A stretch of DNA of 64,000 nucleotides from Deltaproteobacteria bacterium (GCA_016933965.1 JAFGTS010000034.1:2696-66695), one strand, 5' to 3'. Counted from the stretch's first letter, positions 24,623-50,768 are shown. A program made the numbers and translations. The notes: generated from the sequence alone by a model not told the origin.

Positions 24623-24677
24623 TTGACAGGCAGGATGAATACATATACTAAACCATAAAGTTACACTTCATGCTTCA
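24623..24677 (+). promoter_or_regulatory. Sigma70-like promoter with operator site 2
   Basis: TTGACA at 24623, TATACT at 24644; operator TAAAC-CA-TAAAG-TTACA-CTTCA-TG-CTTCA at 24649-24677. Confidence 0.75.
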
Positions 24678-25904: not shown

Positions 25905-25968
25905 TGGAATCCCGGCGGAGGGTGACGGGGCCTGTCATCGGTTTTTCAACCACAAAGGAGGGAACCTT

Positions 25969-27699: not shown

Positions 27700-27717
27700 A
27701 ACGCAGGAGGAACGGTT

Positions 27718-30239: not shown

Positions 30240-30302
30240 ACACGTCCCTCCTTTTCAGATTATTTCCATGTTCGCGCGTGACGAAACCCCTCCGCCGTCC
30301 GG

Positions 30303-31979
30303 TCAGGGGCGTTTTTTGAGCTCCTGTTCCCGCAATTCCTTTCTGAGTATCTTCCCGACGGCGGATTTCGGAAGTTCATCAACAAATTCATAGAGTTTCG
30401 GGGCCTTGAAGGCGGCAAGCCGTTCCCTGCAGAAGGCATCCAGTTCTTCGGCGGTCAGGGTCTCCCCCGGTTTCACCACCACAAAGGCCTTTACCGTCTC
30501 ACCCCGGTATTCATGGGGAACGCCGACGGTGCAGGCCTCGAGAACGCGAGGATGCTCATAGAGTATTTCATCGATCTCCCGGGGATAGATATTGTATCCG
30601 CCGGCGATGATCATGTCCTTTGTCCGATCCACGATATAGAGAAAACCGTCTTCATCGAGCTTTCCGATATCACCCGTGTGAAACCATCCGTTCCTGAGAG
30701 CGGTGTCGGTTTCCTCGGGCATATTGTAATAGCCGGCGCACATCTGAGGACCCCTGAAAACGATCTCACCCTCTTCACCGGGGGCCAGTTCCCGTTCTCC
30801 CGTTTCCAGATCGACGATCCGCATGTCCGTGTTGGGCAGGGCGACGCCGACGCTTCCCGGCTTGTGAAGTCCCCGCCAGGGCGTCATGTGGGTGATGCCC
30901 GTCGATTCCGTCATTCCGTACCCCTCGATAACGCCGATCTTCGCATCGGAAACTCCCTTGAGGGCCCCGATGGTTTCAACGGGCAGGGGCGCCGCACCGG
31001 AAAAGAAGGCCCTGATAAAGGACAGGTCCGCCGTCTTGAAGGCCGGGAGATTCAGTATGCCCGTATAGATGGTGGGAACGGCCAGGAATATGGAGGGTTT
31101 GTACTTGAGCGCCATGTCCAGCGCGATCTCCGGCTCGGGCCGGGGAACCAGTATGATCTCCCAGGCCCGGTACAGGCAGATGCACATGACGAGCAGGAAC
31201 CCGGCCATGTGAAAGAAGGGGAACAGGGCTATCTCGCTTTCCTTGCCCTCCTCCATGTCAAAGAGCCAGGCCCCGACGATCTGCACGATCGATGAGATAT
31301 TGCGATGTGAAATGATCGCTCCCTTTGATACCCCGGTGGTACCGCCCGTGTAAGGAATGATCGCGAGATCGTCAAGCTTCGGGTGTGCCGGTGCGTCGGT
31401 GCGTGAACTTCCCCGCATCAGATCCATGAACTGGTAGTATCCCGGACGTTTCCTGTAGGGCGCGTACATTCCCTTCTTGACGAAGGGAAACAGCTGCTTG
31501 ACGGGAAAAGGAAGATAGTCGTTGATGTGTGCCGTTATGATCGTCTTCAGCCGTGTTTTCGTCTTGAGCGCCAGCATCCGTTCCGCCAGCAGGTCCAGAG
31601 TGATCAGGACCGACGCGCCGGACATGTTCAACTGGTGTTCTATTTCACGATCCGAGTAGAGAGGATTGACGGGAACCGCCGTCGCGCCCGCCCGCCATAT
31701 GCCGAAATAAGCAATGGTGATCTGGGGCACGTTCGGCAGGAGCAGGGCCACCCGGTCCCCCGCACCGACACCGATGGCGCGAAGGGCGTGGGCGAAACGG
31801 TTCGACAGGGTATCAAGTTCGCGGAACGATATCCGCTTTCCCATAAATATCAGGGCTGTCTTTGAGGGATACTTCCCGGCGTTTCGGCTCAGGAACTCCG
31901 ATATGGTGAGTTGCTCAAATTCCAGTTCCGGCGGGATTCCGGTGACATAGGCCCCATGCCATATCCTGTTGAATGCCAT
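30303..31979 (-). CDS. Long-chain fatty-acid--CoA ligase
   Basis: YTGGTTGVSKG, GYGMTE, GWFHTGD, PKSAVGKILRK. Confidence 0.95.
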   Translation of the reverse strand: MAFNRIWHGAYVTGIPPELEFEQLTISEFLSRNAGKYPSKTALIFMGKRISFRELDTLSNRFAHALRAIGVGAGDRVALLLPNVPQITIAYFGIWRAGATAVPVNPLYSDREIEHQLNMSGASVLITLDLLAERMLALKTKTRLKTIITAHINDYLPFPVKQLFPFVKKGMYAPYRKRPGYYQFMDLMRGSSRTDAPAHPKLDDLAIIPYTGGTTGVSKGAIISHRNISSIVQIVGAWLFDMEEGKESEIALFPFFHMAGFLLVMCICLYRAWEIILVPRPEPEIALDMALKYKPSIFLAVPTIYTGILNLPAFKTADLSFIRAFFSGAAPLPVETIGALKGVSDAKIGVIEGYGMTESTGITHMTPWRGLHKPGSVGVALPNTDMRIVDLETGERELAPGEEGEIVFRGPQMCAGYYNMPEETDTALRNGWFHTGDIGKLDEDGFLYIVDRTKDMIIAGGYNIYPREIDEILYEHPRVLEACTVGVPHEYRGETVKAFVVVKPGETLTAEELDAFCRERLAAFKAPKLYEFVDELPKSAVGKILRKELREQELKKRP

Positions 31980-32141
31980 GATTCGACCTCCTGGCGGTTA
32001 GGTTCATTGCATCGCGTAATATGGCAATCAGCCATTGAACCGCGGTTCCCCGGATGAGTTCCGCTCACGTCCGCTCCACGTATACCGGGGATCACTCCGT
32101 CATCATTCATCGAACAGCAAGGGACGGTTCAGTGGCGTTTT

Positions 32142-32915
32142 CTATCGGTCCATGAAGACCGGCTTACGCTTTTCAATGAAGGCGGCGACCCCCTCCTTCT
32201 TGTCGGCACTCTCGGCCAGCCTTCCAAGAAGCGTCCGCTCCATCTTCAAGCCCTCGGCAAGGGGCATCTTCAGACCCTCGACGACGGCCGTGACGATCGC
32301 ACGCACGGCCAGTTGGCCCTTTGAGGCGATCTTGCCGGCGAGCTTTCCCGCTTCTTCAAGAAGTGATGCATCGGGAACAACAGCGTTTACCAGGCCGATC
32401 TTTTCTGCTTCGGCCATGCCTATGAATGCGCCGGTCAGCATCAGCTCCATCGCTTTCGCGGAACCGAGAAGCCGCGCGCTTCTCTGGGTGCCGCCGAATC
32501 CGGGCAGGATCCCGAGCCGTACCTCGGGCAGCCCCATTTGCGCCGATTGAGCACCGATCCTGATATGGCAGGCGAGGGCCAGTTCAGTTCCACCACCAAG
32601 GGCCAGACCGTTGATTGCGGCAATGACAGGTTTCTGCGAATGTTCGATCAAATTGAGAATTGACTGGCCCCGCTCCGCCATAGATTCGGCTTCTGATGCC
32701 GTATTGATCTCCTGCATTTTCTTGATATCGGCACCGGCGATGAACGCCATGCCTTCACCGGTGATGATCACCACCTTGACCGCCGGGTCGTCCGCGATGT
32801 CACGCAGTGATCTTTCCAGATCATTGAGAACATCTTCATCAATGGCATTTAAGGGAGGGTTATCGATCTTGAGGATCGCAATACCTTTTTCATCTACATC
32901 ATACCGGCATTTCAT
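32142..32915 (-). CDS. Enoyl-CoA hydratase (crotonase) with both catalytic Glu
   Basis: AFIAGADI, GGGTELALACH, LPEVRLGILPGFGGTQR. Confidence 0.93.
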   Translation of the reverse strand: MKCRYDVDEKGIAILKIDNPPLNAIDEDVLNDLERSLRDIADDPAVKVVIITGEGMAFIAGADIKKMQEINTASEAESMAERGQSILNLIEHSQKPVIAAINGLALGGGTELALACHIRIGAQSAQMGLPEVRLGILPGFGGTQRSARLLGSAKAMELMLTGAFIGMAEAEKIGLVNAVVPDASLLEEAGKLAGKIASKGQLAVRAIVTAVVEGLKMPLAEGLKMERTLLGRLAESADKKEGVAAFIEKRKPVFMDR

Positions 32916-32976: not shown

Positions 32977-33031
32977 TGAAGCATGAAGTATAACTTTAAG
33001 CTACACTATCGCGTCTTCCGGCACCTGTCAA
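32977..33031 (-). promoter_or_regulatory. Sigma70-like promoter with operator site 3
   Basis: Minus strand: TTGACA at 33031-33026; operator TGTAG-CT-TAAAG-TTATA-CTTCA-TG-CTTCA at 33005-32977. Confidence 0.75.
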
Positions 33032-33264: not shown

Positions 33265-34431
33265 TTACAGTCCTTCCATCCGGGCGAGAATTTCTCTCAT
33301 GATCTCATCGGCACCGCCGCCTATCGACATGAGACGGGCGTCCTTGTAATAGCGTGACACGAGGGTTTCGTTCATGAATCCCATGCCGCCGTACATCTGC
33401 AGGCATCCGTCGGCGACACGCGAAATAAGCTGGCCGGCGATCAGCTTCCCCATGGACACCTCACGGGTCACATCGATACCCTCCATCTTCATCCTGACGA
33501 CATGATAGGTGAGCTGCCGAAGCGCCTCGATCTCCGTCAGCCAGTCGACCAGCCGGTGTCTCAGGACCTGCCGGACGATCAGGGGTTTCCCGAACACGAT
33601 CCGCTGTCTCAGGTAATCGACGGTCATGGCGATGATGTCCCCGGCGGCCACATAAAGGAAGGGAAGGGCTGAAAACCGCTCATGCTGAAACTGCTGCATC
33701 TGATAGATGAATCCCTCTCCCTCTTCTCCTACGAGATGCTCTCCGGGAACGCGGAGGTTGTCGAAGAACAGTTCGGCCGTATCGCTGCTCCTGAGACCCA
33801 TCTTATCGAGCTTCTTGCTGACATGAAACCCGGGAAGATCGGTGGGAATTACAAAGAGACTGAAACAATGATGGCCCCGTTCATCGCTTGTCCGTGCCAG
33901 AAGAGTCAGAAAATCCGCCTGCGTGCCGTTCGTTATGAATGTCTTTGAACCATTTATCACATAGGAATCTCCATCTTTGACCGCCCGCGTCTTGAGCGCG
34001 GCAACATCGGACCCGGCATCGGGCTCCGTCACCGCGATGGCCGCCACGAGGTCGCCGGCGACGGCCCCTCGAAGGAACCTGTCCTTCAGATAGTCACTGC
34101 CGAACTGGGCGATGGCGGGTGTCGCCATGTTCGTCTGAACCGCTATGGCCGTGGGCACGCCGAATCCGTGAATATGTCCCAGTTCCTCCAGAAAGGCCGT
34201 TTCGAACCAGTAATCAAGACCCTGACCTCCATACTGTTCATCATAGCGGATGCCCAGCAGTCCGAGATCTCCCATTTTTTTGAACAGCTCATGGAGCGGG
34301 ACCGTGCGCTCTTCCCACAGGTCCATACAGGGGTTTATCTCATTTTTCACGAAGTCATATACGGTGTTCCGAAGCATCTGGTGATCCTCATTGAAATAGA
34401 GCCGTGCTGCTGCATTTGATTGTGCCATCAT
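33265..34431 (-). CDS. Acyl-CoA dehydrogenase, citronellyl-CoA dehydrogenase (AtuD)-like
   Basis: GVPTAIAVQTNMATPAIAQFGSD, GFIYQMQQFQHER and SIGGGADEIM resemble the AtuD family as recalled. Confidence 0.85.
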   Translation of the reverse strand: MMAQSNAAARLYFNEDHQMLRNTVYDFVKNEINPCMDLWEERTVPLHELFKKMGDLGLLGIRYDEQYGGQGLDYWFETAFLEELGHIHGFGVPTAIAVQTNMATPAIAQFGSDYLKDRFLRGAVAGDLVAAIAVTEPDAGSDVAALKTRAVKDGDSYVINGSKTFITNGTQADFLTLLARTSDERGHHCFSLFVIPTDLPGFHVSKKLDKMGLRSSDTAELFFDNLRVPGEHLVGEEGEGFIYQMQQFQHERFSALPFLYVAAGDIIAMTVDYLRQRIVFGKPLIVRQVLRHRLVDWLTEIEALRQLTYHVVRMKMEGIDVTREVSMGKLIAGQLISRVADGCLQMYGGMGFMNETLVSRYYKDARLMSIGGGADEIMREILARMEGL

Positions 34432-34533: not shown

Positions 34534-34594
34534 GGCAACTTAAAGTATCACTCTAAGCTTTACGATAATTATACCACACCGGCCATCCTGTCAA
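34534..34594 (-). promoter_or_regulatory. Sigma70-like promoter with operator site 4
   Basis: Minus strand: TTGACA at 34594-34589, TG-G-TATAAT; operator TAAAG-CT-TAGAG-TGATA-CTTTA-AG-TTGCC at 34562-34534. Confidence 0.7.
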
Positions 34595-34744: not shown

Positions 34745-34799
34745 TTGACAGGGATCCGGCAACCTTGTAATAAAGTCTAAAGCTGAACTTTAAGCTTTA
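34745..34799 (+). promoter_or_regulatory. Sigma70-like promoter with operator site 5 (all four half-sites perfect)
   Basis: TTGACA at 34745; TAAAG-TC-TAAAG-CTGAA-CTTTA-AG-CTTTA at 34771-34799. Confidence 0.8.
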
Positions 34800-34846
34800 G
34801 TATAACGAACAGGGCCTTTCTCAACGCATACCAAGGGGGTGTAAAC

Positions 34847-35812
34847 ATGAAACAGGAAGATTATGTGTGGGATTATCGCGATCCCTATGCGTGGATGGAG
34901 CGGGTCAGAGGGCACAATTTCCCGCCCATGATGATCACCTGCGCGGTCACCGGCGGTGTTCAGGGCAAGGAAATGAACGAAAACCTTCCCGAAAGCGTCG
35001 AGGAACAGGCGGATGCCGTTTACGAGGCCTACCAGGCCGGGGCGGTGTCTGTTCACCTGCACGCAAGAGATCCGCAAAATCTCTCCATGACCACGAACAA
35101 TCCGGAACACTATTCACGGCTGAACACTCTCATTCGCGAACGTTGTCCGGACATCATCATCAATAACACAACCGGCGGCGGTCCCTGGCTTTCCACGGAA
35201 GAGCGCATGTGCTGCCTCTTCGCCGACCCGGCTCCGGACATGGCCAGTTTGAACCTGGGACCATTCATGCTCAAGGTCCCTCTGAAAGACCGGAAAGAAC
35301 CCCTGCCGAATCCACGGCCCGGATTTCTTTTCGATCAGTGCATACCGACGAGCTACAGCGACGTTAATCTGTATGCGAAAACAATGCAGGAAAAAGGCAT
35401 CAAGCCGGAAGTGGAACTGTATCACCCCGGGCAGTACTGGGTCCTTCTCGATCTGATGCGTGAGGGCACGATCGATCCGCCCTACATGATCCAGTTCGTC
35501 ATGGGGTTCCAGACATCTTCCTTCCCGACGCCGGCGAATGTCCTCTCCCTGATAAACGAATTGCCTCCCCAGTCGATGTTCTCCCTCATCGGCGTGGGAC
35601 CATTCCAGATCCCCATGAACGTCTTCTCCATTATGATGGGAGGTCATGTGCGGGTCGGCATGGAGGATAACCTGTATTTCCGCAAGGGGGAAAAATTGCA
35701 ATCCAACGCCCAGTTGGTGGCCCGCATCAAAGGGATAGCGGAAGAGATGAACAGGACGGTGGCAACTGTGGCCCAGGCCCGGGAAATGCTGGGGCTTCCC
35801 CAGAAACCGTAA
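34847..35812 (+). CDS. Beta-keto acid cleavage enzyme (BKACE/DUF849, Kce family)
   Basis: ITCAVTGG, VHLHARDP, INNTTGG, ASLNLG, KPEVELY, HVRVGMEDN, EMLGL. Confidence 0.92.
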   Translation: MKQEDYVWDYRDPYAWMERVRGHNFPPMMITCAVTGGVQGKEMNENLPESVEEQADAVYEAYQAGAVSVHLHARDPQNLSMTTNNPEHYSRLNTLIRERCPDIIINNTTGGGPWLSTEERMCCLFADPAPDMASLNLGPFMLKVPLKDRKEPLPNPRPGFLFDQCIPTSYSDVNLYAKTMQEKGIKPEVELYHPGQYWVLLDLMREGTIDPPYMIQFVMGFQTSSFPTPANVLSLINELPPQSMFSLIGVGPFQIPMNVFSIMMGGHVRVGMEDNLYFRKGEKLQSNAQLVARIKGIAEEMNRTVATVAQAREMLGLPQKP

Positions 35813-35876
35813 GTAACACGGCAACGGTTGCTCCGGTAAGATAAAGCCGTGGAACAACGAATGCAGGAGGAATGTT

Positions 35877-36326
35877 ATGGATGTTGAAAACATGTACTAT
35901 CACGGTCGTATCAACGTACCCTACAAGTGGTATGTCGGTGCCACAGGAAGCCGGTTCCTCGTCGGGCTGAGAGATGGAAAGGAATTCTGGGGTATCACGT
36001 GCCCGAAATGTGGAAAGGTATATGTGCCGCCACTGAAGACATGCCCGGAATGCTTCGTGCCGAACGAAGAGTGGGTACGGCTCGCGGATACGGGCACCGT
36101 TGAATCCTTCACGGTCGCCCATTACTCGAACGGTGTTTCTCCGTCGGACATCCCTTATGTCCTGGGTCTCATCAAGATGGACGGCGCCGACGGTTCATTT
36201 CTTCACTATATCGGAGATGCCGATCCCGCCGACGTGAAAGTGGGTATGCGGGTCAAGGCGGTCTTCGCCGATGAACGAACGGGGAACATCATGGATATCA
36301 AGCACTTCGCTCCGGTAAACGAATAA
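35877..36326 (+). CDS. Zn-ribbon/OB-fold protein (DUF35)
   Basis: CPKCGKVYVPP..CPEC, GTVESFTV, VKVGMRVKAVF. Confidence 0.92.
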   Translation: MDVENMYYHGRINVPYKWYVGATGSRFLVGLRDGKEFWGITCPKCGKVYVPPLKTCPECFVPNEEWVRLADTGTVESFTVAHYSNGVSPSDIPYVLGLIKMDGADGSFLHYIGDADPADVKVGMRVKAVFADERTGNIMDIKHFAPVNE

Positions 36327-36337
36327 GGAGAGGGACT

Positions 36338-37474
36338 ATGGAAAAGGTAGGTATTGTCGGTGTTGGTCAGACCATATACGAACGACGGAAAACAGACACC
36401 TTCGCGGAGCTTGTATTCGAAGCCTGCACCAGCGCCCTCGCCGATGCGGGGATCGGAATACAGGATATCGATAACGTGGTAACCGTCTCAAATGATTTCT
36501 GGGACGGACGGACGATTTCATCCATGGCCATTCAGGATGCCGCGGGCGCATGGGAAAAGGACGTATCGACCGTCGAGGGGGACGGCATTTTCGGCGCTCT
36601 CTACGGAATGATGCGAACCCTCTCCGGTTCCTTCGACACGACGCTCATCGTGTCACACGTGAAGGGATCGGAGGGAAACATGAACCTCATCACGAACGCC
36701 ATGTTCGATCCCATCTATCAGCGGCACCTGGGGGTGGACGCCACGACATCGGCGGCCCTGCAGGCCCGGGCGTACATGGAAAAAACGGGGGCGACGGAAG
36801 AGGACTTCGCCAGGGTGTCGGTGAAAAATCACGGAAACGGCGTGAACAACCCCTTCGCCCAGATCCGGAAAAAGATCAGTCTTGAGGACGTTTTGAATTC
36901 TCGCAAGATATCAGAACCATTGAAACTTTATGACTGTTCCCCCATATCCGACGGCGCCGCGGCCATTGTTCTTTCCAATGAGAAGGGGCTGGCGAGATTC
37001 AAGAAGGACCCGGTATGGATACTTGGCGTGGGGCATTGTTCCGATTCCTATTCCCTGGGATATCGCGACCTGACGTTTCCCCGGGCATTGCAGGCCGCGG
37101 CGGGCAAAGCATTTGCGTCGGCAGGGATCAAAAACCCCTTGAAGGAACTCGACGTGGCGGAAATCGCCGATGCCTATTCCTATATGGAACTCATCTGGTA
37201 CGAGGGTTTCGGTTTCGCCGCCGAAGGCGCGGGAGCGGACCTGATCCGCTCGGGCGCGACCGCAATGGACGGGGCACTGCCCGTAAACCCCTCCGGCGGG
37301 CTTCTGTCCGCCCATCCCGTTCTGGTGGCCGGTCTGGCGCGCATCGTCGAGGCGACGCTTCAACTCCGGGGCGAGGCGGGTGACAGGCAGGTTAAGGGGG
37401 CGAAAAAAGCCCTTGCACACGGAATCAACGGCCCCTGCGGACAATCACACGGGGTCTTTGTGTTGGGAGCATAA
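36338..37474 (+). CDS. Thiolase-fold (SCP2-type) protein, Ltp4-like, lacking the N-terminal catalytic Cys
   Basis: CSPISDGAAA, NPSGGLLSAHP, LAHGINGP; STVEGDG occupies the position of the thiolase xCxS motif. Confidence 0.85.
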   Translation: MEKVGIVGVGQTIYERRKTDTFAELVFEACTSALADAGIGIQDIDNVVTVSNDFWDGRTISSMAIQDAAGAWEKDVSTVEGDGIFGALYGMMRTLSGSFDTTLIVSHVKGSEGNMNLITNAMFDPIYQRHLGVDATTSAALQARAYMEKTGATEEDFARVSVKNHGNGVNNPFAQIRKKISLEDVLNSRKISEPLKLYDCSPISDGAAAIVLSNEKGLARFKKDPVWILGVGHCSDSYSLGYRDLTFPRALQAAAGKAFASAGIKNPLKELDVAEIADAYSYMELIWYEGFGFAAEGAGADLIRSGATAMDGALPVNPSGGLLSAHPVLVAGLARIVEATLQLRGEAGDRQVKGAKKALAHGINGPCGQSHGVFVLGA

Positions 37475-37485
37475 GGGAGGCTGAT

Positions 37486-38679
37486 ATGGGTAAGAGAGTA
37501 GCCGTTGTAGGTTTTGGACAGACGAAAGGACGAAGTTCCCGCAAAGACGTGAATGGACAGGAACTCATCAATGAAGCGGTTGTAACGGCGCTGCAGGATG
37601 CGGAACTGACAATCCGGGACATTGACGCCATCGTCATCGGAAATATGGATCATTTTGAGGGCATTAACTATGTCGACACCTGGAGTGTCGAGGGCGCGGG
37701 CGGCGTCATGAAGCCCATATTCAAGGTGACCACGGGTGGGACGACGGGAACGACCGTCGCCATGAGCGCCTATTATCATGTCGCCTCAGGCATGTTCGAC
37801 CGGGTGCTCGCCATCGGCTGGGAAAAGAACTCCGAATCGGACACCACGGGCGCCATTATCACCGCCTTCGACCCCGTATGGGAACGGCCCAACCTGGGCG
37901 GAGCCGTCGCGGGACTGGCGATCGAGGCAAGCAAGTACATGAGCAACTACGGGGTCACCGAACGGGACGGGGCCCGTGTGGCGGTGCGGGAACGTCTCCA
38001 CGCGCTGAACAACCCTTACGCCCACCTGCATCAGGAGTGGATGAAGGGTATCCCGGTGGATCAGCTGGTCGATCTGATAGTCGGGTCCGAGCAGAATGTC
38101 ATGCTGGCGTATCCACTTCGGATGAGCGACATGTGCCCGCGGACGGACGGCGCCGCGGCGGCCGTCTTCGCGTCCGAAGATGTGGCCGAAAAGATCGCCC
38201 CGATCCCGGCCTGGGTCCTCTCCACGGTGAACAGGCATAATTTCGCTCTCGCCGGCGATGTGGACATGGACCGGAACACAACCATGGCAAAAGCCTCAAA
38301 AAAGGCCTTCGAGAAAGCGGGAATAAAGGAGCCTCTCAAAGAGATAGATGTCTGCGAGCTTTATCTTCCCTATTCATACGCCGGCCTCAAGTGGATGGAG
38401 GATTACGGCTTCTGTGAATACGGTGAAGGCCCGAAGCTGCTCTGGGACGGTGTCACCGACATGGACGGCGAGCTGCCGGTCAATCCTTCCGGCGGTGTCA
38501 TGAGCTCTAATGCCATTGGCGCGACGGCGCTCATCCGCGTCGGTGAGGCGGCGACCCAGGTGATGGGCAAGGCGGGAACCCGGCAGGTGCCGAAGGATGT
38601 GAACATCGCCTTCGCAACGGGCTTCGGCGGTTGTTACTGGGCTGACGTAATGATCCTGGGCAGGCGGAAACCGGCCTGA
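37486..38679 (+). CDS. Thiolase-fold (SCP2-type) protein, Ltp3-like, lacking the N-terminal catalytic Cys
   Basis: KVTTGGTTG, VLAIGWEKNSES, NPSGGVMSSNAIGA..RVGEAATQVMGKAG.RQV. Confidence 0.88.
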   Translation: MGKRVAVVGFGQTKGRSSRKDVNGQELINEAVVTALQDAELTIRDIDAIVIGNMDHFEGINYVDTWSVEGAGGVMKPIFKVTTGGTTGTTVAMSAYYHVASGMFDRVLAIGWEKNSESDTTGAIITAFDPVWERPNLGGAVAGLAIEASKYMSNYGVTERDGARVAVRERLHALNNPYAHLHQEWMKGIPVDQLVDLIVGSEQNVMLAYPLRMSDMCPRTDGAAAAVFASEDVAEKIAPIPAWVLSTVNRHNFALAGDVDMDRNTTMAKASKKAFEKAGIKEPLKEIDVCELYLPYSYAGLKWMEDYGFCEYGEGPKLLWDGVTDMDGELPVNPSGGVMSSNAIGATALIRVGEAATQVMGKAGTRQVPKDVNIAFATGFGGCYWADVMILGRRKPA

Positions 38680-38707
38680 TCCTTTTTGAACGCGACGGAG
38701 GAACATC

Positions 38708-39193
38708 ATGGAAAAAAATGAACAGAAGAAAAACGAACAGGAGCTTCTCACCGTAACGTCCGGTGACATGTTCCAGCCCTACGACTGGAGCGTCGGATTG
38801 TTCGGATCCAGATTTCTGGCCGAGCTCAGGGATAATAAGAAGATATACGGCATAAAATGTCCGAAGTGCGGAAAAGTGTACGTCCCGCCCCGCAAGATCT
38901 GCGGCAGTTGCTACGTGGCGATGGATGAATTCGTACCGTTATCCGATGAAGGTGAAGTGTATGTCTGCACGATCGTCCATTTCGGCTTCGTCGATCCCGA
39001 AACGGGCAAGCAGCGTCCTGTTCCATATGGATACGCCTTCATCAAGCTTGACGGCGCGGACACATGCCTCACCCATTTCGTCAACAGCACCGACCCGGAG
39101 AAGTTCAAGGTCGGCGCCCGGGTAAAGGCCGTCTTTGAAGAAAAACGAAAGGGCAGTATCGCCGATATCAAACACTTCGATATCATCGATTAG
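38708..39193 (+). CDS. Zn-ribbon/OB-fold protein (DUF35)
   Basis: CPKCGKVYVPPR.ICGSC, VPYGYAFIKLDGAD, KVGARVKAVF. Confidence 0.92.
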   Translation: MEKNEQKKNEQELLTVTSGDMFQPYDWSVGLFGSRFLAELRDNKKIYGIKCPKCGKVYVPPRKICGSCYVAMDEFVPLSDEGEVYVCTIVHFGFVDPETGKQRPVPYGYAFIKLDGADTCLTHFVNSTDPEKFKVGARVKAVFEEKRKGSIADIKHFDIID

Positions 39194-39224
39194 TCTGTTC
39201 CGCTGTATCATTGGGGAGGTTTAC

Positions 39225-39698
39225 ATGATTGAAGAACGGTTCAAGGAAATCGCCGAGATCGCCGTAACCAGTATCGAAGCGATCAAACGGACAGGGATCC
39301 GGGTCACCGACATGCAGGAAGGGTATGCCAAGATGCTCATGCCGCTGGAGGGAAACATCAACCATGTGGGCATGATGTATGCGGGGACGCTCTTCACCCT
39401 GGGTGAGTTCTGCGGAGGCATCATATACGGAGCCGCCTTCGATGTGAACAAGTACTACCCCATCGTAAAAGAGGTGACCATCAGGTTCCGCCGCCCGGTC
39501 CTTACGGATGCGACCATCGAGGTGTCACTCAACCGGGAGGAAGCCGAACGTATTCAGAAGGTCTGCGATGAGCAGGGCAAAAGCGACTTTGTCCTGAACC
39601 TGGAGATCAAGGATGCCGGCGGTACGGTCGTGGCCCTCGTCGACGGGACCTGGCAGATCAGGCAGATACCCAAGGAGATGGGAAACCCATTCAGGTAG
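39225..39698 (+). CDS. Hotdog-fold thioesterase (YiiD/PaaI-like)
   Basis: GNINHVGMMYAGTLFTLGE, IVKEVTIRFRRP; RBS GGAGG. Confidence 0.85.
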   Translation: MIEERFKEIAEIAVTSIEAIKRTGIRVTDMQEGYAKMLMPLEGNINHVGMMYAGTLFTLGEFCGGIIYGAAFDVNKYYPIVKEVTIRFRRPVLTDATIEVSLNREEAERIQKVCDEQGKSDFVLNLEIKDAGGTVVALVDGTWQIRQIPKEMGNPFR

Positions 39699-39826
39699 AC
39701 CGACGGCGGCGGGGTTTCCTTCCCGCGTCACAGGGAAAACAATGGCCGCAGTGTACGAATGAGCGGCGGGGACCGCAATCTGCAATCCCTGCCGTTCAGG
39801 GGGGTAATTCCGAAAAGGAGGGAACC

Positions 39827-40285
39827 ATGGAAAAAATATGTTTTGAGGATTATCAACTCGACGAAGTGCTGGTCAGCCCGGGCCGGACCATCACGGAAGC
39901 CGACATTGTCATGTTCGCCGCCCTCACCGGTGACTGGCACCCCATTCACACGAACGTGGAGTACGCCAAAAAAACAATTTTCGGTGAGCGGATCGCCCAC
40001 GGCATGCTGGGTCTGACCATCGGGTCGGCTCTCATATTCCGCCTCGGTCCCTATGTATTTACACCGAAGAAATTCATCGCCTTCTACGGAATGGACAAGA
40101 TCCGTTTCACCGGTCCCATAAAGATCGGCGATACGATCCGGTGTGAAGCGAAGGTCGCCATCCTCAAGGAACGGGATGAAAAGACGGGCGTTATCGGCTA
40201 CGAGGCAGCCATAAAAAATCAGCGCGACGAGAACTGTGTCGTTTTCTCACCGCGCATTCTTGTCGGCAGGCGGGACAACGATTGA
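39827..40285 (+). CDS. MaoC-family (R)-specific enoyl-CoA hydratase
   Basis: RTITEADIVMFAALTGDWHPIH...FGERIAHG. Confidence 0.92.
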   Translation: MEKICFEDYQLDEVLVSPGRTITEADIVMFAALTGDWHPIHTNVEYAKKTIFGERIAHGMLGLTIGSALIFRLGPYVFTPKKFIAFYGMDKIRFTGPIKIGDTIRCEAKVAILKERDEKTGVIGYEAAIKNQRDENCVVFSPRILVGRRDND

Positions 40286-40298
40286 AAAGGGGCTCTCT

Positions 40299-41447
40299 AT
40301 GGACTTTGAACTGACGAAAGAACAACAGATGCTCAAAGAGGCGGTCGCCCGCTTCGTTGATGACCGGGTCATTCCCCTGGCACCGACCATCGACAACGAC
40401 GGGGCCTTCCCCGAAGAAAGTTTCAGGACCATGGCGGAGATGGGGCTTTTCGGCATAACGATACCCCAGGAATACGGGGGGAGCGGGGCGGACCTGCTTT
40501 CCTGCGTGGTGGTGATGGAGGAACTTGGAAGGGGATGCGCCGCAACGGCCAACACCTTCGGTGCTCATGCAATTCTATGTACCGAAAACATTTACCGGAA
40601 CGGCACCGATGAACAGAGAAAGCGGTATCTCCCGGACCTGATAGCGGGGAAAAAGATCGGCGCCATCGCCATTACGGAACCGGGAGCCGGCTCCGACGCG
40701 ACATCCTTGACGACCCGGGCCGAGAAGCGGGGTGACGCCTATTACCTGAACGGAACGAAGATGTTCATCACGAACGGACCGGTGGCTGATGTCATGGTCG
40801 TCTACGCAAAGACGAACCCCGAAGCCGGCCCTCACGGCATCAGCACGTTCATCGTTGAAAAAGATTTCCCCGGCTTCTCCCGGGGCAAATCACTCAAGAA
40901 AATGGGGGTAAAGGGGTCCCCGACGGGCGAACTGATCTTTGAGGACTGCCGGGTTCCTGCTGAAAACCTCCTGGGAAAAGAGAACGAAGGTATCCGGGTG
41001 CTGATGAGCGGTCTTGACCGGGAACGGATCACCTATGCCATCTGTCCCATCGGGGTGGCTCAGGGTGCCTTCGATGTGGCATTCAAATATGCCTGTGAGC
41101 GCGTCCAGTTCGGCGCACCCATTATCAGCTTTCAGATGATCCAGGAGATGGTCGCCGACATGGCAACGGACATCAATGCGGGACGTCTCGTGGGGTACTG
41201 GGCGGCGGCGGAAGCGGACCGCGGGAAGCGCGTACGGCTCGAGGCGTCCTACGCAAAGCTCTTCTGTTCGCAGGCCGGCCTGCGGGTCGTTGACCGGGCG
41301 ATCCAGATCCTCGGCGGTTACGGCTTCATCAGCGAATTTCCCATTGAACGCATGTATCGTGACATCAAGGGGATCGAGTTCGGTGCCGGCACCACGCAGA
41401 TCCAGAAACTCATCATCGTCAGGGAACTGATGAAAAATCTCGGATAA
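40299..41447 (+). CDS. Acyl-CoA dehydrogenase, isovaleryl-CoA dehydrogenase-like
   Basis: FGAHAILC..NIYRNGT.EQ, ITNGPVAD..VVYAKT, VLMSGLDRER, FGAGT. Confidence 0.9.
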   Translation: MDFELTKEQQMLKEAVARFVDDRVIPLAPTIDNDGAFPEESFRTMAEMGLFGITIPQEYGGSGADLLSCVVVMEELGRGCAATANTFGAHAILCTENIYRNGTDEQRKRYLPDLIAGKKIGAIAITEPGAGSDATSLTTRAEKRGDAYYLNGTKMFITNGPVADVMVVYAKTNPEAGPHGISTFIVEKDFPGFSRGKSLKKMGVKGSPTGELIFEDCRVPAENLLGKENEGIRVLMSGLDRERITYAICPIGVAQGAFDVAFKYACERVQFGAPIISFQMIQEMVADMATDINAGRLVGYWAAAEADRGKRVRLEASYAKLFCSQAGLRVVDRAIQILGGYGFISEFPIERMYRDIKGIEFGAGTTQIQKLIIVRELMKNLG

Positions 41448-41662
41448 TCAACTTCTTGACTCTATGGCAGCGTGCCTGAACGCCTCCGCGCGGCGCGCTG
41501 CCCTTCAAAATCGCTTCTTAAGAAAACAATTCGCCATCTTGCATTACATCCCCAATTCACCGTATAATCACTCTGTTAAATCTCAACCGGCACGTTACAG
41601 GATTCTCCTGTTCATTTCCCCACCAATACACAAGAATGATGAAGACAGAAGGAGACGGGATC

Positions 41663-43363
41663 ATGGCGAAAAAGAAAAAGATCATTGTCATCGGGGGATC
41701 GGCGGCGGGGCCGAAGGCCGCCGCCAAGGCACGGCGGTTGGACAACGACGCAGATGTCATCATTCTGCAGAAGGACCCGGACCTTTCCATGGCATCCTGC
41801 GGATACCCCTATTACGTGGGTGGCTATTTCGACGACCGCAACATGCTGCTCTGCACACCCACAGGCGTCACACGGGACCCGCAATTCTACCTCAACGCGA
41901 AGAACATCGACGCGCGGGTCAACTCTGAAGTGACAGAGGTCGACCGGGAGAATCACCGGATAACCTACCGGAACATCCTGACCGGTGCTACGGATACCAT
42001 GGAGTACGACAAGCTTATCTTTGCCGTCGGATCCACACCCCGGATGCCCCCGGTACCCGGTGTGGGACTGAGGGGTATTACCACCCTTCACTCGATGAGG
42101 GACGCTGATCTGCTGAGAAAGATACGGGATAATAAAACGATCAAGAAGGCCGTGGTCATCGGCGGCGGCCTGATCGGTATCGAAACCTGCGAGGCGCTTC
42201 AGCTCGCCGGCATCGAGATCACCGTGATCGAACTGCTGCCGCAACTGCTGACCTTCCTCGATTGGGAACTGGCAAAACTGGTCGAGAACCACGTGAGGGA
42301 GAAGGCCGCCAACGTCATCACCGGCAACGGCATCGCGGAATTTCTCGGTGAGAACGGCACACTGACGGGAGTCAAACTTCAGAACGGCACGGAGCTTCCC
42401 TGCGAGTTGGCCGTCGTTGCCATCGGGGTCAATCCGAACACCGCCCTAGCCCAGGCATCGGGTTTGAAAATAGGCGAACGGGGAGGGGTCGAGGTCAACG
42501 AATACATGCAGACCTCCGACCCCGACATTTATGCCGTCGGCGACTGTATCGAAACCGTCAACCGCATCACCGGGGCCAAGGTGCTGGCACCTTACGGAGA
42601 CCTGGCCAATCTCCAGGGCCGTGTCGCCGGGGAAAACGCCGCGGCGGGGAATTGCGTCACCTTTCCGGGCACCATCCAGACGGGTATCTGCAAGGTCTTC
42701 GATTATGCGGCGGGTTCGACGGGACTTTCGGAAACCGTGGCCACACGGCTCGGATACGAGGATATCATCACTGTCATTAACGCCAGCCCTGACAAGCCGG
42801 GGTTCATGGAAGGCCTCCTGATCGTCACGAAAATGGTGGCCGACAGGAAGACCGGCCGCATCCTGGGCGCCCAGTGCGTGGGTCCCGGTAACGTGAGCAA
42901 ACAGATCGCTCAGTGGGCAATGGCCATCCAGGGCAATCTGACCGTGGAAGACCTCATCAACGCGGATCTCCCTTACGCGCCCCCCTTCTCGCTCGCCATC
43001 GACCACTTCATAGCAACGGCCCATATCATGCAGAACAAGATGAAGGGGCGGTTCAAAGGGATATCAACCGTGGAGGTCAAAAAGAAAGTCGAAGGGGGCG
43101 AGAAACCCTATCTGCTTGATGTGCGGGGTCCCGACGAGTTCGAAGAAATGCGGCTCGGTATCGGCGAAACGCTCATCCCCCTGGGCGCGCTTCGAAAGCG
43201 GCTGAAAGAAATGCCCCCGGACAAGAAACGGGAGATCATCTGCTACTGCAAGATATCCCTCAGGGGATATGAGGCCGCCCTGGTGCTTGAAGCGAACGGG
43301 TGGAAGAACGTGAAGGTCATGGAAGGGGGGATCATGGCCTGGCCCTTTACGCGGGAAAAATAA
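41663..43363 (+). CDS. CoA-disulfide/persulfide reductase with C-terminal rhodanese domain
   Basis: GGSAAG, SMASCGYPYY, GGGLIG.E, LPYAPPFS, rhodanese LLDVR...CYCKISLRGY. Confidence 0.92.
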   Translation: MAKKKKIIVIGGSAAGPKAAAKARRLDNDADVIILQKDPDLSMASCGYPYYVGGYFDDRNMLLCTPTGVTRDPQFYLNAKNIDARVNSEVTEVDRENHRITYRNILTGATDTMEYDKLIFAVGSTPRMPPVPGVGLRGITTLHSMRDADLLRKIRDNKTIKKAVVIGGGLIGIETCEALQLAGIEITVIELLPQLLTFLDWELAKLVENHVREKAANVITGNGIAEFLGENGTLTGVKLQNGTELPCELAVVAIGVNPNTALAQASGLKIGERGGVEVNEYMQTSDPDIYAVGDCIETVNRITGAKVLAPYGDLANLQGRVAGENAAAGNCVTFPGTIQTGICKVFDYAAGSTGLSETVATRLGYEDIITVINASPDKPGFMEGLLIVTKMVADRKTGRILGAQCVGPGNVSKQIAQWAMAIQGNLTVEDLINADLPYAPPFSLAIDHFIATAHIMQNKMKGRFKGISTVEVKKKVEGGEKPYLLDVRGPDEFEEMRLGIGETLIPLGALRKRLKEMPPDKKREIICYCKISLRGYEAALVLEANGWKNVKVMEGGIMAWPFTREK

Positions 43364-43445: not shown

Positions 43446-44150
43446 CTACTCCTCCTCCTCTTCCTCTTTTTTTCCGTTCACGCTTCGCTGGATGATTGAC
43501 TGGATATTACGCTGGAACAACCGCCGCATGATGTAACTGTGCATCGTATCGACCCGTTTCGCTACTTCCAGAGTAAATCGCATGTTCTCATCCCGGGATT
43601 TTCCCTTCACGATCCGCCGGCGCAAGGCCGCCTCGTGTTCCATGATCTCCTTGCCCAGCCGAACGTAAAAATCAAGGTCCTTGAACTCCAATCCCAACTC
43701 CAGGATCTTCTTCAGCAGGTCCCGACCGAAGCGGACGTCCTCCTCATTGAACAGAACACGGCCCTTCTCCTTCACACAGGGCATCAGCAGACCGACACGC
43801 TCCGCATCCCGATATTGTGCCAGCGTCAATCCCGTCCGCTCCAGAAATTCATTGCGGTCAATAAGGTTGTTCGCCGTCCCGAACACCACGTCCTCGATCG
43901 CTTCCGCCTCCTCCAGGCTCATCCCCTCGTCAAGACGCCGCACGATATTCTTGATGATCGACAACGGGAAAAACCGCCGTTCCTGCAGATGTCGAATCGC
44001 CTGGATCTTTTCCACGCAACTCTCATCATAGTATGCCATGCTCTTGTTCACCTTTTCCGGCTCCGGCAATAACCCCTGCCGCACATAGTACCGGATCGTC
44101 GACGGTTGTACCCCGCTGCGCTTTGCTATCTCACCGATTTTCAACGCCAT
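43446..44150 (-). CDS. MerR-family transcriptional regulator with a second HTH-like domain
   Basis: LKIGEIAKRSGV..STIRYY.RQGLLP; second segment IDRNEFLERTGLTLAQYRDAERVGLL. Confidence 0.9.
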   Translation of the reverse strand: MALKIGEIAKRSGVQPSTIRYYVRQGLLPEPEKVNKSMAYYDESCVEKIQAIRHLQERRFFPLSIIKNIVRRLDEGMSLEEAEAIEDVVFGTANNLIDRNEFLERTGLTLAQYRDAERVGLLMPCVKEKGRVLFNEEDVRFGRDLLKKILELGLEFKDLDFYVRLGKEIMEHEAALRRRIVKGKSRDENMRFTLEVAKRVDTMHSYIMRRLFQRNIQSIIQRSVNGKKEEEEEE

Positions 44151-44240: not shown

Positions 44241-44296
44241 TTGACAGGGGCGTCGCTTTCCATATAGTAAAGTATAAAGTAATGCTTTAAGATAAG
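44241..44296 (+). promoter_or_regulatory. Sigma70-like promoter with operator site 6 (divergent merR/fadH region)
   Basis: TTGACA at 44241, TATAGT at 44263; TAAAG-TA-TAAAG-TAATG-CTTTA-AG at 44268-44291; back-to-back TTGACA on the minus strand at 44215. Confidence 0.75.
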
Positions 44297-44367: not shown

Positions 44368-46383
44368 ATGATGGAGTACAAGCGGCTTTTTGAGCCCATT
44401 ACGATACAGGGACTCATAATACCGAACAGGATCGTCATGCCCGCCATGGGTCTTGCCTATACCGACGATTATACGTTTAACGACCGGTTCGCGGCCTTCT
44501 ACCGCGAGCGTGCGCGGGGAGGCGTGGGATTGATGATCGTGGGACCCATCGCCATTGATGAGGTCGGCGCCGCCCCCTTCATGCCGGGACTGTTCGACGG
44601 GAGAAACATGGAGTCCCTGAAGCGGTTCATCGAGGAAATTCACCAGGATACAGAGACGAAGGTCGCGACACAGCTGTTCCACATGGGACGCAACGCCTCT
44701 TCCCTGTTCACCGGCAGGACACCGGTGGCGCCGTCCGCCGTGCCCAGCCAACTGACCGGTGAAATGCCCCGCGAGATGTCACGGGACGATATCGAAGAAA
44801 CACAGACGTCATTCGTGAAAGCGGCCCTGCGTGCCAAAGAGGCGGGCTTTGATTTTATCGAGATAATCGCCTGCACGGGGTATCTGATCAGCCAGTTCCT
44901 CTCTCCCGTGACCAACAGGCGTTCCGACGAGTACGGCGGCCCCTTCGAAAACAGGATGCGTTTCGGGCTCGAGGTCGTATCGAGTGTCAGGGCAGCCGTG
45001 GGAAAGAACTTTCCGCTGGGAATCAGGATCGCCGGCAACGATTTTATCAAGGGAGGACATACAAATGCCGAGCAGGCGCTTTTCGCCGCCGAGGCCGAGA
45101 AGGCCGGCATAGACGCGATCAATGTTACCGGCGGGTGGCACGAGACGAATATTCCCCAGTTGACGACGAACGTCCCCCCCGGCGCATACGTCTATCTTGC
45201 CCGGGGAGTAAAGGAAAAGGTGACGATTCCCGTTTTCGCGTCAAACCGGCTGGGAGACCCGGCGGTGGCCGAGCGCGCCCTGAGAAGCGATTCCTGTGAC
45301 ATGATCTGCATGGGTCGGCCGCTCATAGCCGATCCGGAGCTCCCCGTAAAGGCCCGGGACGGCCGCCGTGATGAGATCGTGTCGTGCATCGCCTGTAATC
45401 AGGGCTGCTTCGACGCCCTGTTCTCGGGCTTTTCCGTGTCCTGCGTCCTGAATCCGCGGGCAGGCCGGGAAAATGAACTGATCGAGACCCCCGCCCGGCA
45501 CAGCAGGAACATTCTTGTCGCCGGCGGCGGCCCTGCCGGTATGGAGTTCGCCCTGACCGCGGCCCGGCGAGGACATTCGGTCACCCTCTGCGAAAAGGAA
45601 CCCGAACTGGGAGGGCAGATCAATCTGGCCATGACGCCTCCGGGGAAGGCGGAATTCGGGAACATGATCGGCGGCATGAAGCGACGAATGGAACGGGCCG
45701 GCGTAACGGTGCGCACACACACGGAGGTGACCCCCGAAATGCTTCAAAACGGCGGGAGACCCTACGATCTCGTCGCTGTTGCCACGGGAGCCGAACCCAT
45801 TGAGATATCCGTTCCCGGGATCGACAAACCGCATGTGGTCGGCGCCTGGGATGTGTTAAGTGAAAAGGTCCACCGCATCGGACGGAACGTGGTGGTCGTG
45901 GGCGGCAGCGCCACCGGCTGTGAAACGGCGTATTTCATAGCCGCCATGGGGACGGTGAACGCCGCCGTGTTCACTCACCTGATGTACCATGAAGCGGAAG
46001 AAGGTGATCTCGCCCGCGCCCTTCTCCGTGACACGGGAAGAACCATAACCGTCATCGACATGGTCGATCGGATGGCCGATAACGTGGGTCGTACCGCTCG
46101 CTGGTCCCTCTTGAAGAGCCTTAAGCTCATGGGAATCACCATGAAAACGGAAACGCGGCTGATCGAAATAGGGGACGACGAGGTGATCGCCGAATCCAGG
46201 GGGGAACTTCTGAAGATCCCCGCCGACACGGTTGTGATCGCCGTGGGTTCCCGGTCTCTTGACAGGCTCACCGATCTGTGCAAGGAAAAGGGACTCGCGA
46301 CGATCTCCATCGGTGACGCCCGGCAACCCCGGAAAATAACCGACGCTATCCGCGAGGGATTTGAGGCCGCACTCTCTCTGTAA
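44368..46383 (+). CDS. fadH: 2,4-dienoyl-CoA reductase-like flavo-FeS enzyme (FadH/BaiCD OYE family)
   Basis: PNRIVMPAM, GYLISQFLSP.TN.R.DEYGG, GWHE, CIACNQGC, GGGPAG. Confidence 0.85.
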   Translation: MMEYKRLFEPITIQGLIIPNRIVMPAMGLAYTDDYTFNDRFAAFYRERARGGVGLMIVGPIAIDEVGAAPFMPGLFDGRNMESLKRFIEEIHQDTETKVATQLFHMGRNASSLFTGRTPVAPSAVPSQLTGEMPREMSRDDIEETQTSFVKAALRAKEAGFDFIEIIACTGYLISQFLSPVTNRRSDEYGGPFENRMRFGLEVVSSVRAAVGKNFPLGIRIAGNDFIKGGHTNAEQALFAAEAEKAGIDAINVTGGWHETNIPQLTTNVPPGAYVYLARGVKEKVTIPVFASNRLGDPAVAERALRSDSCDMICMGRPLIADPELPVKARDGRRDEIVSCIACNQGCFDALFSGFSVSCVLNPRAGRENELIETPARHSRNILVAGGGPAGMEFALTAARRGHSVTLCEKEPELGGQINLAMTPPGKAEFGNMIGGMKRRMERAGVTVRTHTEVTPEMLQNGGRPYDLVAVATGAEPIEISVPGIDKPHVVGAWDVLSEKVHRIGRNVVVVGGSATGCETAYFIAAMGTVNAAVFTHLMYHEAEEGDLARALLRDTGRTITVIDMVDRMADNVGRTARWSLLKSLKLMGITMKTETRLIEIGDDEVIAESRGELLKIPADTVVIAVGSRSLDRLTDLCKEKGLATISIGDARQPRKITDAIREGFEAALSL

Positions 46384-49935: not shown

Positions 49936-50326
49936 GAATCCCTCCTTTTCTTCTCCTGCAGTACTCACCCGCTCATTCATCCTCTTTGAAAGAGCACAGC
50001 ATTCCCCTCGGGGGAATACGAGACCAGGTTGTCATGTCTATGTTCCGGCAGGACACCGGATCGGGGAGTTCTTCAGATGTTCCCTCTTATGGCCACTATA
50101 GGTAACACATTCACGCTGCGGATACAAATGATTCCTTCAGAAAAGAGTGTTTTTCACAGCCCCGGTGACCCGGCAGGTGTGCGGACATTTGTCTCATGTT
50201 TCAAAAAATATTATTTTGGGGCTCATCTCCGAAGAAGTTACTGTCTTTTTCGGGATTCAAGAGATCTGGGGTTCAATGATCCGAGTGAAAAACCGGGTCA
50301 TTTCACATGAGAGTTTTTAGTGTGAT

Positions 50327-50737: not shown

Positions 50738-50768
50738 GTTCTGACCTCTCACATAGGAATTCTGCAAC

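Follow-up and report, generated by a model that had tools for sequence, protein, structure and literature searches.

In the Liu/Atu route, beta-branched acyl-CoAs are degraded by isovaleryl-CoA dehydrogenase (IVD) or AtuD, methylcrotonyl-CoA carboxylase (MCC) or geranyl-CoA carboxylase (GCC), a crotonase-type hydratase and 3-hydroxy-3-methylglutaryl-CoA (HMG-CoA) lyase. Little is understood of how energy-limited anaerobes pass beta-methyl branches in isoprenoid and related acyl chains, and the one solution known consumes ATP. For the C24 branches of sterol side chains, passages of two reports describe carboxylation at C28, hydration and cleavage by Ltp3-Ltp4, after which the free carboxylate is re-esterified (PMC6678751, PMC10049677). 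Ltp3 and Ltp4 are named aldol-lyases in passages of two others (PMC8708139, PMC6593523). In the thiolase-fold aldolases Sal and Ltp2 a tyrosine is the catalytic base and the general acid is Cys304 (Sal) or Tyr344 (Ltp2), and a glycine at the nucleophile position rules out thiolysis in Sal, as given in a section of PMC12329534. The reaction of the BKACE proteins (beta-keto acid cleavage enzymes) is described in a passage of PMC11961710, and their substrate groups in a passage of PMC4922564. Here we describe an operon of eight genes at positions 34847-41447 of a 64,000-nucleotide stretch of DNA, hereafter the window, from Deltaproteobacteria bacterium (GCA_016933965.1, JAFGTS010000034.1:2696-66695). 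It encodes a BKACE, two DUF35 proteins and a pair of thiolase-fold subunits, A and B, followed by a hotdog protein, a MaoC hydratase and an acyl-CoA dehydrogenase (ACAD). The complex is probably a retro-aldolase of some kind. Our best model, a tentative one that we rate slightly below an even chance, is that it acts on a 3-hydroxy-3-alkylglutaryl-type CoA ester and that the product passes to BKACE at no ATP cost for re-activation. What is new is a BKACE-linked relative of the Ltp3/Ltp4-type system, a kind that rests on genetics; the locus adds to it a defined regulon of six units and a genome-level look at carboxylase dependence.

Organization of the operon and its host genome

Eight + strand open reading frames (ORFs) fill positions 34847-41447 in one order, separated from 5' to 3' by 64, 11, 11, 28, 31, 128 and 13 nt. 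The ORF calls and family scans agree with the initial annotation on eight co-oriented genes and on their order. Library scans identified, in this order, BKACE (34847-35812; PF05853, 281 bits), a DUF35 (Zn-ribbon/OB-fold) partner in which four Cys are invariant by alignment (35877-36326), subunit A (36338-37474), subunit B (37486-38679), a second DUF35 partner that is 50% identical to the first (38708-39193), a putative accessory hotdog-fold thioesterase (DUF4442/YiiD_C; 39225-39698), a MaoC-type enoyl-CoA hydratase with the D-x4-H motif (39827-40285) and an ACAD of isovaleryl-CoA-dehydrogenase type (40299-41447). Subunits A and B are SCP2-type thiolase folds, and DUF35 and MaoC are separate ORFs. 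Judged from the sequence, the hotdog gene is likely to start at 39225 and the dehydrogenase gene at 40299, which corrects the starts given earlier. A CoA-disulfide-reductase-like gene (41636-43363) was rejected as a member of the operon, being separated by a 215-nt gap and weakly matched in only one relative locus (L043).

The window is part of contig C51 in a 2.85 Mb genome that is 96.7% complete and whose closest relatives are titled Syntrophales or Syntrophaceae. The host is an uncultured anaerobic syntroph and, judged from its gene content (47 ACAD, 50 CoA-ligase-like and 24 crotonase homologues), a lipid-catabolism specialist. The genome holds five paralogous cassettes of A, B and DUF35, three of which adjoin a BKACE gene.

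Thiolase-fold subunits

At the nucleophile position of solved thiolases both subunits carry Gly (Gly83 in A, Gly85 in B) instead of Cys, and Asn342 of B stands where A keeps His326. Alignment thereby bore out what the initial annotation had noticed about the missing Cys of both proteins and the Asn-for-His exchange of the second. A set of 117 B-type sequences was compared (78 from anaerobes, 27 actinobacterial PRK08313 proteins, 7 others and 5 from the host genome). Gly85, Cys217 and Tyr293 are present in all 117, and Pro295 and Asn342 in 116; the Asn is therefore a family signature and not a local oddity. The signature Gly / Tyr-x-Pro / Asn is common to 27 of 27 actinobacterial proteins, which pass the PRK08313 cut-off and come from the phylum of G301. 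Tyr293 is in register with the catalytic Tyr302 of Sal (YDHF/YDCY motif). At the equivalent site of subunit A, Tyr is found in 68 of 73 anaerobe sequences, Ala277 in the window and varying residues in actinobacteria. B is for this reason the more likely catalytic subunit, with Tyr293 as the likely base, and A is likely to be non-catalytic or accessory.

Window B scored 339.6 bits against PRK08313 (NCBIfam cut-off 514) and window A 184.8 bits against PRK07937 (cut-off 419), two families that we take to be Ltp3 and Ltp4, respectively. Because both fall below the cut-offs, the window proteins, which are 28-39% identical to the actinobacterial Ltp4/Ltp3 proteins, are classed from their sequences as relatives and not as family members, and Ltp4 and Ltp3 are used here as clade-level labels. 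In a quick tree of 135 of the 239 rows collected, none of them BbsB, Ltp2, Sal or PhlC, A and B separated into two clades, sister to each other (SH-aLRT 99 and 92), with the actinobacterial pair represented in both. The window proteins lie outside the actinobacterial subclades, and both clades stand apart from the single-subunit thiolase-like proteins. Grouping with Cys-retaining BbsB-type thiolases had been named beforehand as a result that would speak against an aldolase; the BbsB model gave 150.1 and 107.1 bits for the window proteins, far under its cut-off of 750, and the nucleophilic Cys is gone. The structure of B was predicted with a pLDDT of 86.7 and a pTM of 0.91. No structure of the Ltp3/Ltp4 type was found in the PDB copy searched, where the closest solved structure is about 31% identical.

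BKACE and acyl-CoA dehydrogenase

BKACE matched PF05853 with 280.8 bits (Pfam cut-off 24.8). His70, His72, Glu273, Arg269, Glu188, Ser134 and Asn136 are invariant in 23 aligned sequences. By this alignment the enzyme is catalytically intact, the Zn ligands and the catalytic Arg and Glu being kept; the roles of the Kce residues are in part our assumption, including those of Thr108, Ser134 and Asn136 as carboxylate binders. The intact set fits the earlier proposal that BKACE handles beta-keto acids. The protein is under the cut-off of all four named subfamilies, among them Kce (227 against 382 bits), 3-oxoadipate (185 against 350) and 3,5-dioxohexanoate (191 against 430). Val38 sits at the position of the amine-binding Glu14 of Kce, which suggests a hydrophobic beta-keto acid as substrate.

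For the ACAD, the two top matches among solved structures are isovaleryl-CoA dehydrogenases. Glu242 occupies the IVD catalytic position and Gly362-Ala363 the branch pocket, meanings that we presume for these positions. The IVD-type active site supports a beta-branched substrate, in line with the initial annotation.

Gene neighbourhood and distribution

Neighbourhoods were compared in the best 80 loci of 478 relatives found. A close clade, defined by at least 75% identity, comprises 28 of the 80, several of them incomplete at their ends and some from one genome. Of these 28, 24 contain BKACE, 27 the first DUF35, 27 subunit A and 26 the second DUF35, and the exact eight-gene order recurs in two (L027 and L030). 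The conserved core is BKACE-DUF35-A-B-DUF35. Among the other 52 loci, 16 carry a BKACE of another subfamily, fused to DUF35 in six, so that the DUF35-BKACE fusion occurs in 6/80 loci and three BKACE subfamilies adjoin such cassettes. Of the more distant loci, 10 have a classical thiolase nearby and 8 a CoA-transferase. Among 301 Syntrophales genomes sampled, this type of BKACE occurs in 22, of which 21 also have subunit B; subunit B itself occurs in 52, of which 31 are without this BKACE type.

Related arrangements were observed in the host and elsewhere. On contig C7 of the host (L014:7595-16828), two tandem cassettes enclose an SCP2-SCP2-DUF35 fusion protein and a BKACE of the type that is DUF35-fused in six relative loci. 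Downstream of the cassette in L047-L050 lie an IVD-type ACAD, a ligase and a 493-aa gene of the HpaB family (4-hydroxybutyryl-CoA-dehydratase-like) that replaces MaoC. Two cassettes lie in a 60-kb island (L300-L302; G085:C21:240000-300000), together with a pair of nearly identical BKACE genes, numerous ligases and ACADs, and fusions of SDR (short-chain dehydrogenase/reductase) with SCP2; a carboxylase is absent among the labelled genes of the island. Related thiolase-fold/DUF35 sets are found on plasmids of Rhodococcus qingshengii, Simplicispira suum and Streptomyces clavuligerus (L262, L263 and L264), the last adjoining a terpene synthase gene.

Dependence on a carboxylase

The initial annotation proposed a carboxylase-free route, having seen no biotin carboxylase in the window. 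Indeed, a scan of 52 window ORFs gave no match to a carboxylase family, and biotin carboxylase or carboxyltransferase was found in none of the 80 loci. Islands in G085, G099, G513 and G122 had no carboxylase among the panel matches or among 45 further ORFs (of 171 unlabelled candidates). The 28 genome handles searched stand for 27 distinct operon-bearing genomes, G506 being a duplicate of G201. A full-length carboxyltransferase was missing from seven of the 27 (G303, G304, G509, G510, G511, G513 and G514), which gave only short AccA/AccD-type matches or none. These seven have no completeness figure and four are close kin by shared gene neighbourhood; as a weak control of completeness, all 10 genomes examined for the AlaRS marker, the seven among them, contain it, with a frameshift in G303, G509 and G510. 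The gamma subunit of acetone carboxylase occurs in four of the seven compared with two of the 21 others searched. A ketone carboxylase was rejected as a universal partner, hydantoinase-B being found in 10/28 and the gamma subunit in 6/28 genomes.

Against the claim of a carboxylase-free route stands a complete MCC-type operon on contig C30 of the host genome (L013:6859-15192), which encodes carboxyltransferase, biotin carboxylase, biotin carrier, crotonase, AtuA and ACAD and ends in its own TetR gene. The PDB matches of its carboxylase favour MCC (E 1e-193) over GCC (E 2e-143), and an AtuC/F-like assignment was rejected. Orthologues are present in 6/27 operon-bearing genomes; G201 keeps the neighbouring atuA and ACAD, and its carboxylase orthologue may be lost to a contig end. 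Each of the 16 Syntrophales relatives tested encodes one or more full-length carboxyltransferases, in some cases paired with MaoC or crotonase genes. A co-regulated carboxylase elsewhere in the genome had been named as what would overturn the claim; the MCC-type operon lacks the operator described below (best score 4.7). In the relatives a co-regulated carboxylase was likewise rejected, the upstream scores being at most 3.1 in five of six loci, and a borderline 13.9 in G508 was not accepted. The Ltp3/Ltp4 precedent, which had been cited in support, cuts against a carboxylase-free route, since there the cleavage follows C28 carboxylation according to passages of PMC6678751 and PMC10049677. In sum, the 80 loci, the missing operator and the seven negative genomes uphold part of the claim, and the host MCC-type operon and the 16 Syntrophales relatives do not.

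HMG-CoA lyase (PRK05692) had no match in the 96.7% complete host genome (G000). Thirteen of 28 genomes searched have HMG-CoA lyase above the cut-off beside the cassette; hence the cassette is not simply a replacement for HMG-CoA lyase. In L072 an AtuA gene lies directly 3' of the A-B-DUF35 cassette. In L178 and L180-L184, MaoC genes that are 53-59% identical to that of the window adjoin stand-alone carboxyltransferases that have no biotin carboxylase next to them, and a distant HMG-CoA-lyase-like gene comes after; these are possibly transcarboxylase or decarboxylase modules.

Proposed mechanism and alternatives

Read from gene order, residues, conservation, operator and co-occurrence, the complex, each of its reactions and its substrate would be as follows. 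The IVD-type ACAD would dehydrogenate a beta-branched acyl-CoA. A second carboxyl group would be added in trans by a carboxyltransferase encoded elsewhere, such as the one in the host genome, or the substrate would already be a 3-alkylglutarate, for example a ring-cleavage product of terpenoids or alkyl-aromatics; only such a ready-made substrate would make the route truly carboxylase-free. Hydration by MaoC would yield a tertiary alcohol, and A, B and the two DUF35 proteins would form a heteromeric retro-aldolase that cleaves the 3-hydroxy-3-alkylglutaryl-type CoA ester, releasing acetyl-CoA together with a free beta-keto acid. BKACE would use that acetyl-CoA to convert the beta-keto acid into a shortened acyl-CoA and acetoacetate. 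The pairing of aldolase and BKACE would thus do the job of HMG-CoA lyase, re-activation and thiolase, and spare one CoA-activation step. By analogy with the thiolase-fold aldolases described in a section of PMC12329534, the CoA fragment would leave as an enolate and the other fragment as a ketone, an aldehyde or, if a second carboxyl is present, a beta-keto acid. The free beta-keto acid is favoured because it is the sole BKACE substrate among the three, and its transfer to BKACE because the repeated recruitment of BKACE and its fusion to a docking DUF35 are best explained in this way. 3-Isopropenylglutaryl-CoA is proposed, in a passage of a report on a syntrophic limonene degrader, to be cleaved by a different enzyme (PMC12583861), which makes 3-alkylglutaryl-CoA substrates plausible in such a habitat. 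From the CrtI-like, dienoyl-reductase-like and long-chain ligase genes of the regulon we lean towards unsaturated isoprenoid-type acids as substrates. Nothing specific to sterols, the other substrate suggested earlier, was found, although steroid ring-degradation genes were not searched for.

Several observations weigh against this model. Carboxylase genes are absent from the 80 loci, and the operator from the MCC-type operon. For the seven genomes that lack a full-length carboxyltransferase, the model requires a substrate that is dicarboxylic from the outset; the regulon shows no evident set of ring-cleavage genes. MaoC (9/28) and the IVD-type ACAD (15/28) are, like the hotdog gene (12/28), often missing from the close clade. 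HMG-CoA lyase beside the cassette is a further such point, and AtuA could, as has been proposed, be the lyase of the MCC operon. Subunit B lacks the known general acids, with Pro295 for Cys304 of Sal and Asn342 for Tyr344 of Ltp2; Glu58, His56 and Cys383 are candidates for this role. The predicted fold of B matches the archaeal thiolase 6ET9 (TM 0.87) better than Ltp2 (0.80) or Sal (0.78), and the modelled fold by itself leaves aldolase or thiolase chemistry undecided.

The initial annotation envisaged a ketone as product. Its Cys-less pair with DUF35 holds as most likely a retro-aldolase, but a ketone fits poorly with a BKACE that is intact, linked and sometimes fused to DUF35. In that route a monocarboxylic tertiary 3-hydroxy-3-methylacyl-CoA, not carboxylated beforehand, would be cleaved to give acetyl-CoA and a methyl ketone, and the ketone may be excreted, carboxylated later for BKACE or used by a ketone-accepting BKACE variant. 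Precedent exists in Ltp2, a ketone-forming aldolase partnered with a MaoC hydratase (passages of PMC6678751 and PMC12329534). The operon itself offers an IVD-type ACAD and MaoC, the 80 loci are devoid of carboxylase, the MCC orthologue occurs in few operon-bearing genomes, and the carboxyltransferase-less genomes are those richer in the acetone-carboxylase gamma subunit. However, a ketone is no described BKACE substrate, and BKACE keeps Thr108, Ser134 and Asn136, the presumed carboxylate binders. Neither the host genome nor any of 14 genomes of high quality contains the gamma subunit, in G303 the ketone-carboxylase-like genes and the operon are on different contigs, and the seven negative genomes carry the limits of kinship and completeness given above. 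The ketone route is considered unlikely. Cleavage of a secondary 3-hydroxyacyl-CoA to acetyl- or propionyl-CoA and an aldehyde, with BKACE acting elsewhere in the same lipid pathway, would resemble Sal, which does so with a MaoC hydratase (a section of PMC12329534). In 5/80 loci the cassette has aldehyde:ferredoxin oxidoreductase genes in its vicinity, but all five are outside the close clade and an aldehyde-oxidising gene was not found in the regulon. As this route would also leave the DUF35-BKACE fusion unexplained and the dehydrogenase is of beta-branch type, it appears quite improbable.

Little probability is likewise given to a non-canonical thiolase or acyltransferase that uses Cys383 of B or Cys367 of A as nucleophile. 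Thiolases and acylases with bound DUF35 (6ET9, 5M3K and 7PYT) are the nearest matches among solved structures. Of the anaerobe sequences, 76 of 78 B subunits have Cys383 and 70 of 73 A subunits have Cys367, and A keeps His326. Cys383 is, however, missing in 27/27 actinobacterial B proteins and in four of the five B paralogues of the host genome, the invariant residue is the aldolase-type Tyr, the BbsB scores are low and the host has six classical thiolases. The steps are all formally reversible, and FabK/NMO-like flavoproteins lie near 13/80 loci, so the operon could build beta-methyl-branched acyl-CoAs, such as iso-fatty-acid primers, by aldol addition, dehydration and reduction. Such a function is very improbable given a regulon of CoA ligases, dehydrogenases and a dienoyl-CoA-reductase-like enzyme behind a repressor-like operator placement, together with the patchy spread among Syntrophales (52/301); aldol addition without thioester hydrolysis is generally unfavourable thermodynamically.

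The preferred model, cleavage of a 3-hydroxy-3-alkylglutaryl-type ester to a beta-keto acid for BKACE, would, if true, establish a third catalytic architecture for thiolase-fold aldolases. BKACE would stand in for re-activation and thiolysis in an ATP-sparing, oxygen-free debranching. Doubtful, although more far-reaching, is a self-contained ATP-free debranching by which anaerobes would remove beta-branches from isoprenoid-type acyl chains without any biotin carboxylase, a heteromeric thiolase-fold aldolase with a catalytic set of a new kind delivering its product to BKACE by way of docked DUF35. In its boldest form a methyl ketone is released, and this BKACE clade may transfer acetyl-CoA to give a shortened acyl-CoA and acetone. 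The module is common in uncultured anaerobes, with 478 relatives in one scan besides its spread in Syntrophales and the five host cassettes, and the best library matches of its proteins are labelled thiolase or lipid-transfer protein.

Operator and regulon

A predicted sigma-70-like promoter, TTGACA-17 nt-TAATAA (34745-34773, + strand), precedes BKACE; it was seen by eye and missed by a consensus scan demanding T at the last position. Just downstream of its -10 box a palindrome scan found an operator (34777-34800), whose 15-bp core (34778-34792) lies inside an inverted repeat with 8-bp arms. A genome-wide scan with the core TAAAGT-N3-ACTTTA, allowing at most one mismatch, gave six sites, five of them inside a 20-kb part of the window and all intergenic. 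As about 2.9 sites are expected by chance, the evidence for the operator is the clustering and not the count. Six transcription units are headed by the operator when a two-mismatch site at 21549 is counted as one of six sites. The initial annotation called the BKACE-proximal operator the best; it does surpass the other five in the length of its perfect inverted repeat, but its matrix score is the lowest (23.3 compared with 25.1-30.5), and its leave-one-out score of 16.6 is close to that of the best non-site (16.5). An operator (score at least 21) is found upstream of BKACE in 6/24 relative loci. Five of the six operators lie just downstream of a TTGACA-type promoter seen by eye, a placement that suggests repressor sites. 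A scan for promoters and terminators was at chance level (7 found with 5.6 expected, and 10 with 11.1).

The other units lie on both sides of the operon. A divergent ACAD (33265-34428, - strand) has its own operator (34541-34555) and is 73% identical to the ACAD of the atuA/MCC operon; we presume from this context that it is AtuD-like, and its plasmid matches bear generic names. An enoyl-CoA hydratase (crotonase) and two long-chain CoA ligases follow (28566-32915, - strand; operator 32984-32998), and an ACAD, a CoA ligase and a flavodoxin-like protein form another unit (24759-28464, + strand; operator 24656-24670). At 21828-24501 (+ strand; operator 21549-21563) a CrtI/carotenoid-isomerase-like FAD oxidoreductase is encoded with an FNR-2Fe2S reductase. 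This pair is near the cassette in 6/80 loci at 45% identity or more, and the arrangement presumably resembles a limonene-dehydrogenase set. The CrtI-like protein has 2367 homologues at E<=1e-60; the names are generic, with no functionally characterised one among the 120 matches listed. On the far side of the operon, a gene for a FadH/OYE-type 2,4-dienoyl-CoA-reductase-like flavoenzyme (44368-46383, + strand; operator 44275-44289) diverges from the gene of a MerR-family regulator (43446-44150, - strand). L029 and L030, two loci with operator sites of their own, contain orthologues of the latter (83%), and the MerR-family protein is the likely, putative operator-binding protein.

Other features of the window and the host genome

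A run on the - strand (49165-54797) encodes TetR, a PaaK-like ligase, a split B12 acyl-CoA mutase and a crotonase, and a palindrome with 15-bp arms (54768-54797) precedes TetR. The mutase has Val at the specificity position, compared with Tyr or Phe in its paralogues, and a Val also in place of an Arg of the MCM-like paralogue, and is a candidate for a mutase of new specificity. On contig C46 of the host (L020:3367-10901), a split B12 mutase, an MmgE/PrpD protein, a radical-SAM activase and an 892-aa glycyl-radical enzyme stand behind a sigma-54 activator. ATP-citrate lyase (two subunits), isocitrate dehydrogenase and an aconitase fragment lie in one run at 58714-63924 (- strand). An ORF of 1150 aa on the + strand (57253-60705), for which Pfam gave no match, is likely to be a shadow frame.

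Comparison with known systems

Literature searches, which covered few subscription papers, found no paper joining BKACE with DUF35 or Ltp3/Ltp4, PMC12979851 offered nothing on the subject, and the BKACE section of the NetSyn report names no such gene context (10.1101/2023.02.15.528638). With BKACE/DUF849 enzymes such as Kce of lysine fermentation, the window protein shares the Pfam match and the full catalytic set; it differs in falling below the subfamily cut-offs and in the hydrophobic residue at the amine-binding position. BbsAB, the archaeal thiolase-DUF35-HMGS complex and PhlABC resemble the operon in combining an SCP2-type thiolase fold with DUF35 and show the top fold similarity, but they keep the nucleophilic Cys where both window subunits have Gly.

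Like the Liu/Atu route, the operon has beta-branch-type dehydrogenases and a predicted cleavage of 3-hydroxy-3-alkylglutaryl-CoA, and the host has an MCC-type operon with AtuA. In contrast to that route, neither operon nor regulon contains a carboxylase, MaoC takes the place of crotonase, a thiolase-fold lyase that of HMG-CoA lyase, and BKACE that of CoA-transferase and thiolase. Ltp2-ChsH2(DUF35) and Sal-Shy(DUF35) (PDB 6OK1 and 9MYR) share the thiolase fold, Gly at the nucleophile position, the Tyr base, a DUF35 and an upstream MaoC, as far as a section of PMC12329534 describes them. They are homodimers with DUF35 fused to the hydratase, and their products are a ketone or an aldehyde, whereas the window pair is without their general acids and is 23-24% identical to them in structural alignments. 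Ltp3-Ltp4 resembles the operon in an adjacent Cys-less pair of A and B accompanied by DUF35 and in a common B signature; in the quick tree the window proteins are in the same two broad sister clades but outside the actinobacterial subclades. Ltp3-Ltp4 is known from genetics only, acts after C28 carboxylation and yields a product that needs re-thioesterification, according to passages of PMC6678751. The window system differs from it in two separate DUF35 genes, an anaerobic host, an IVD-type ACAD, MaoC and a tightly linked BKACE.

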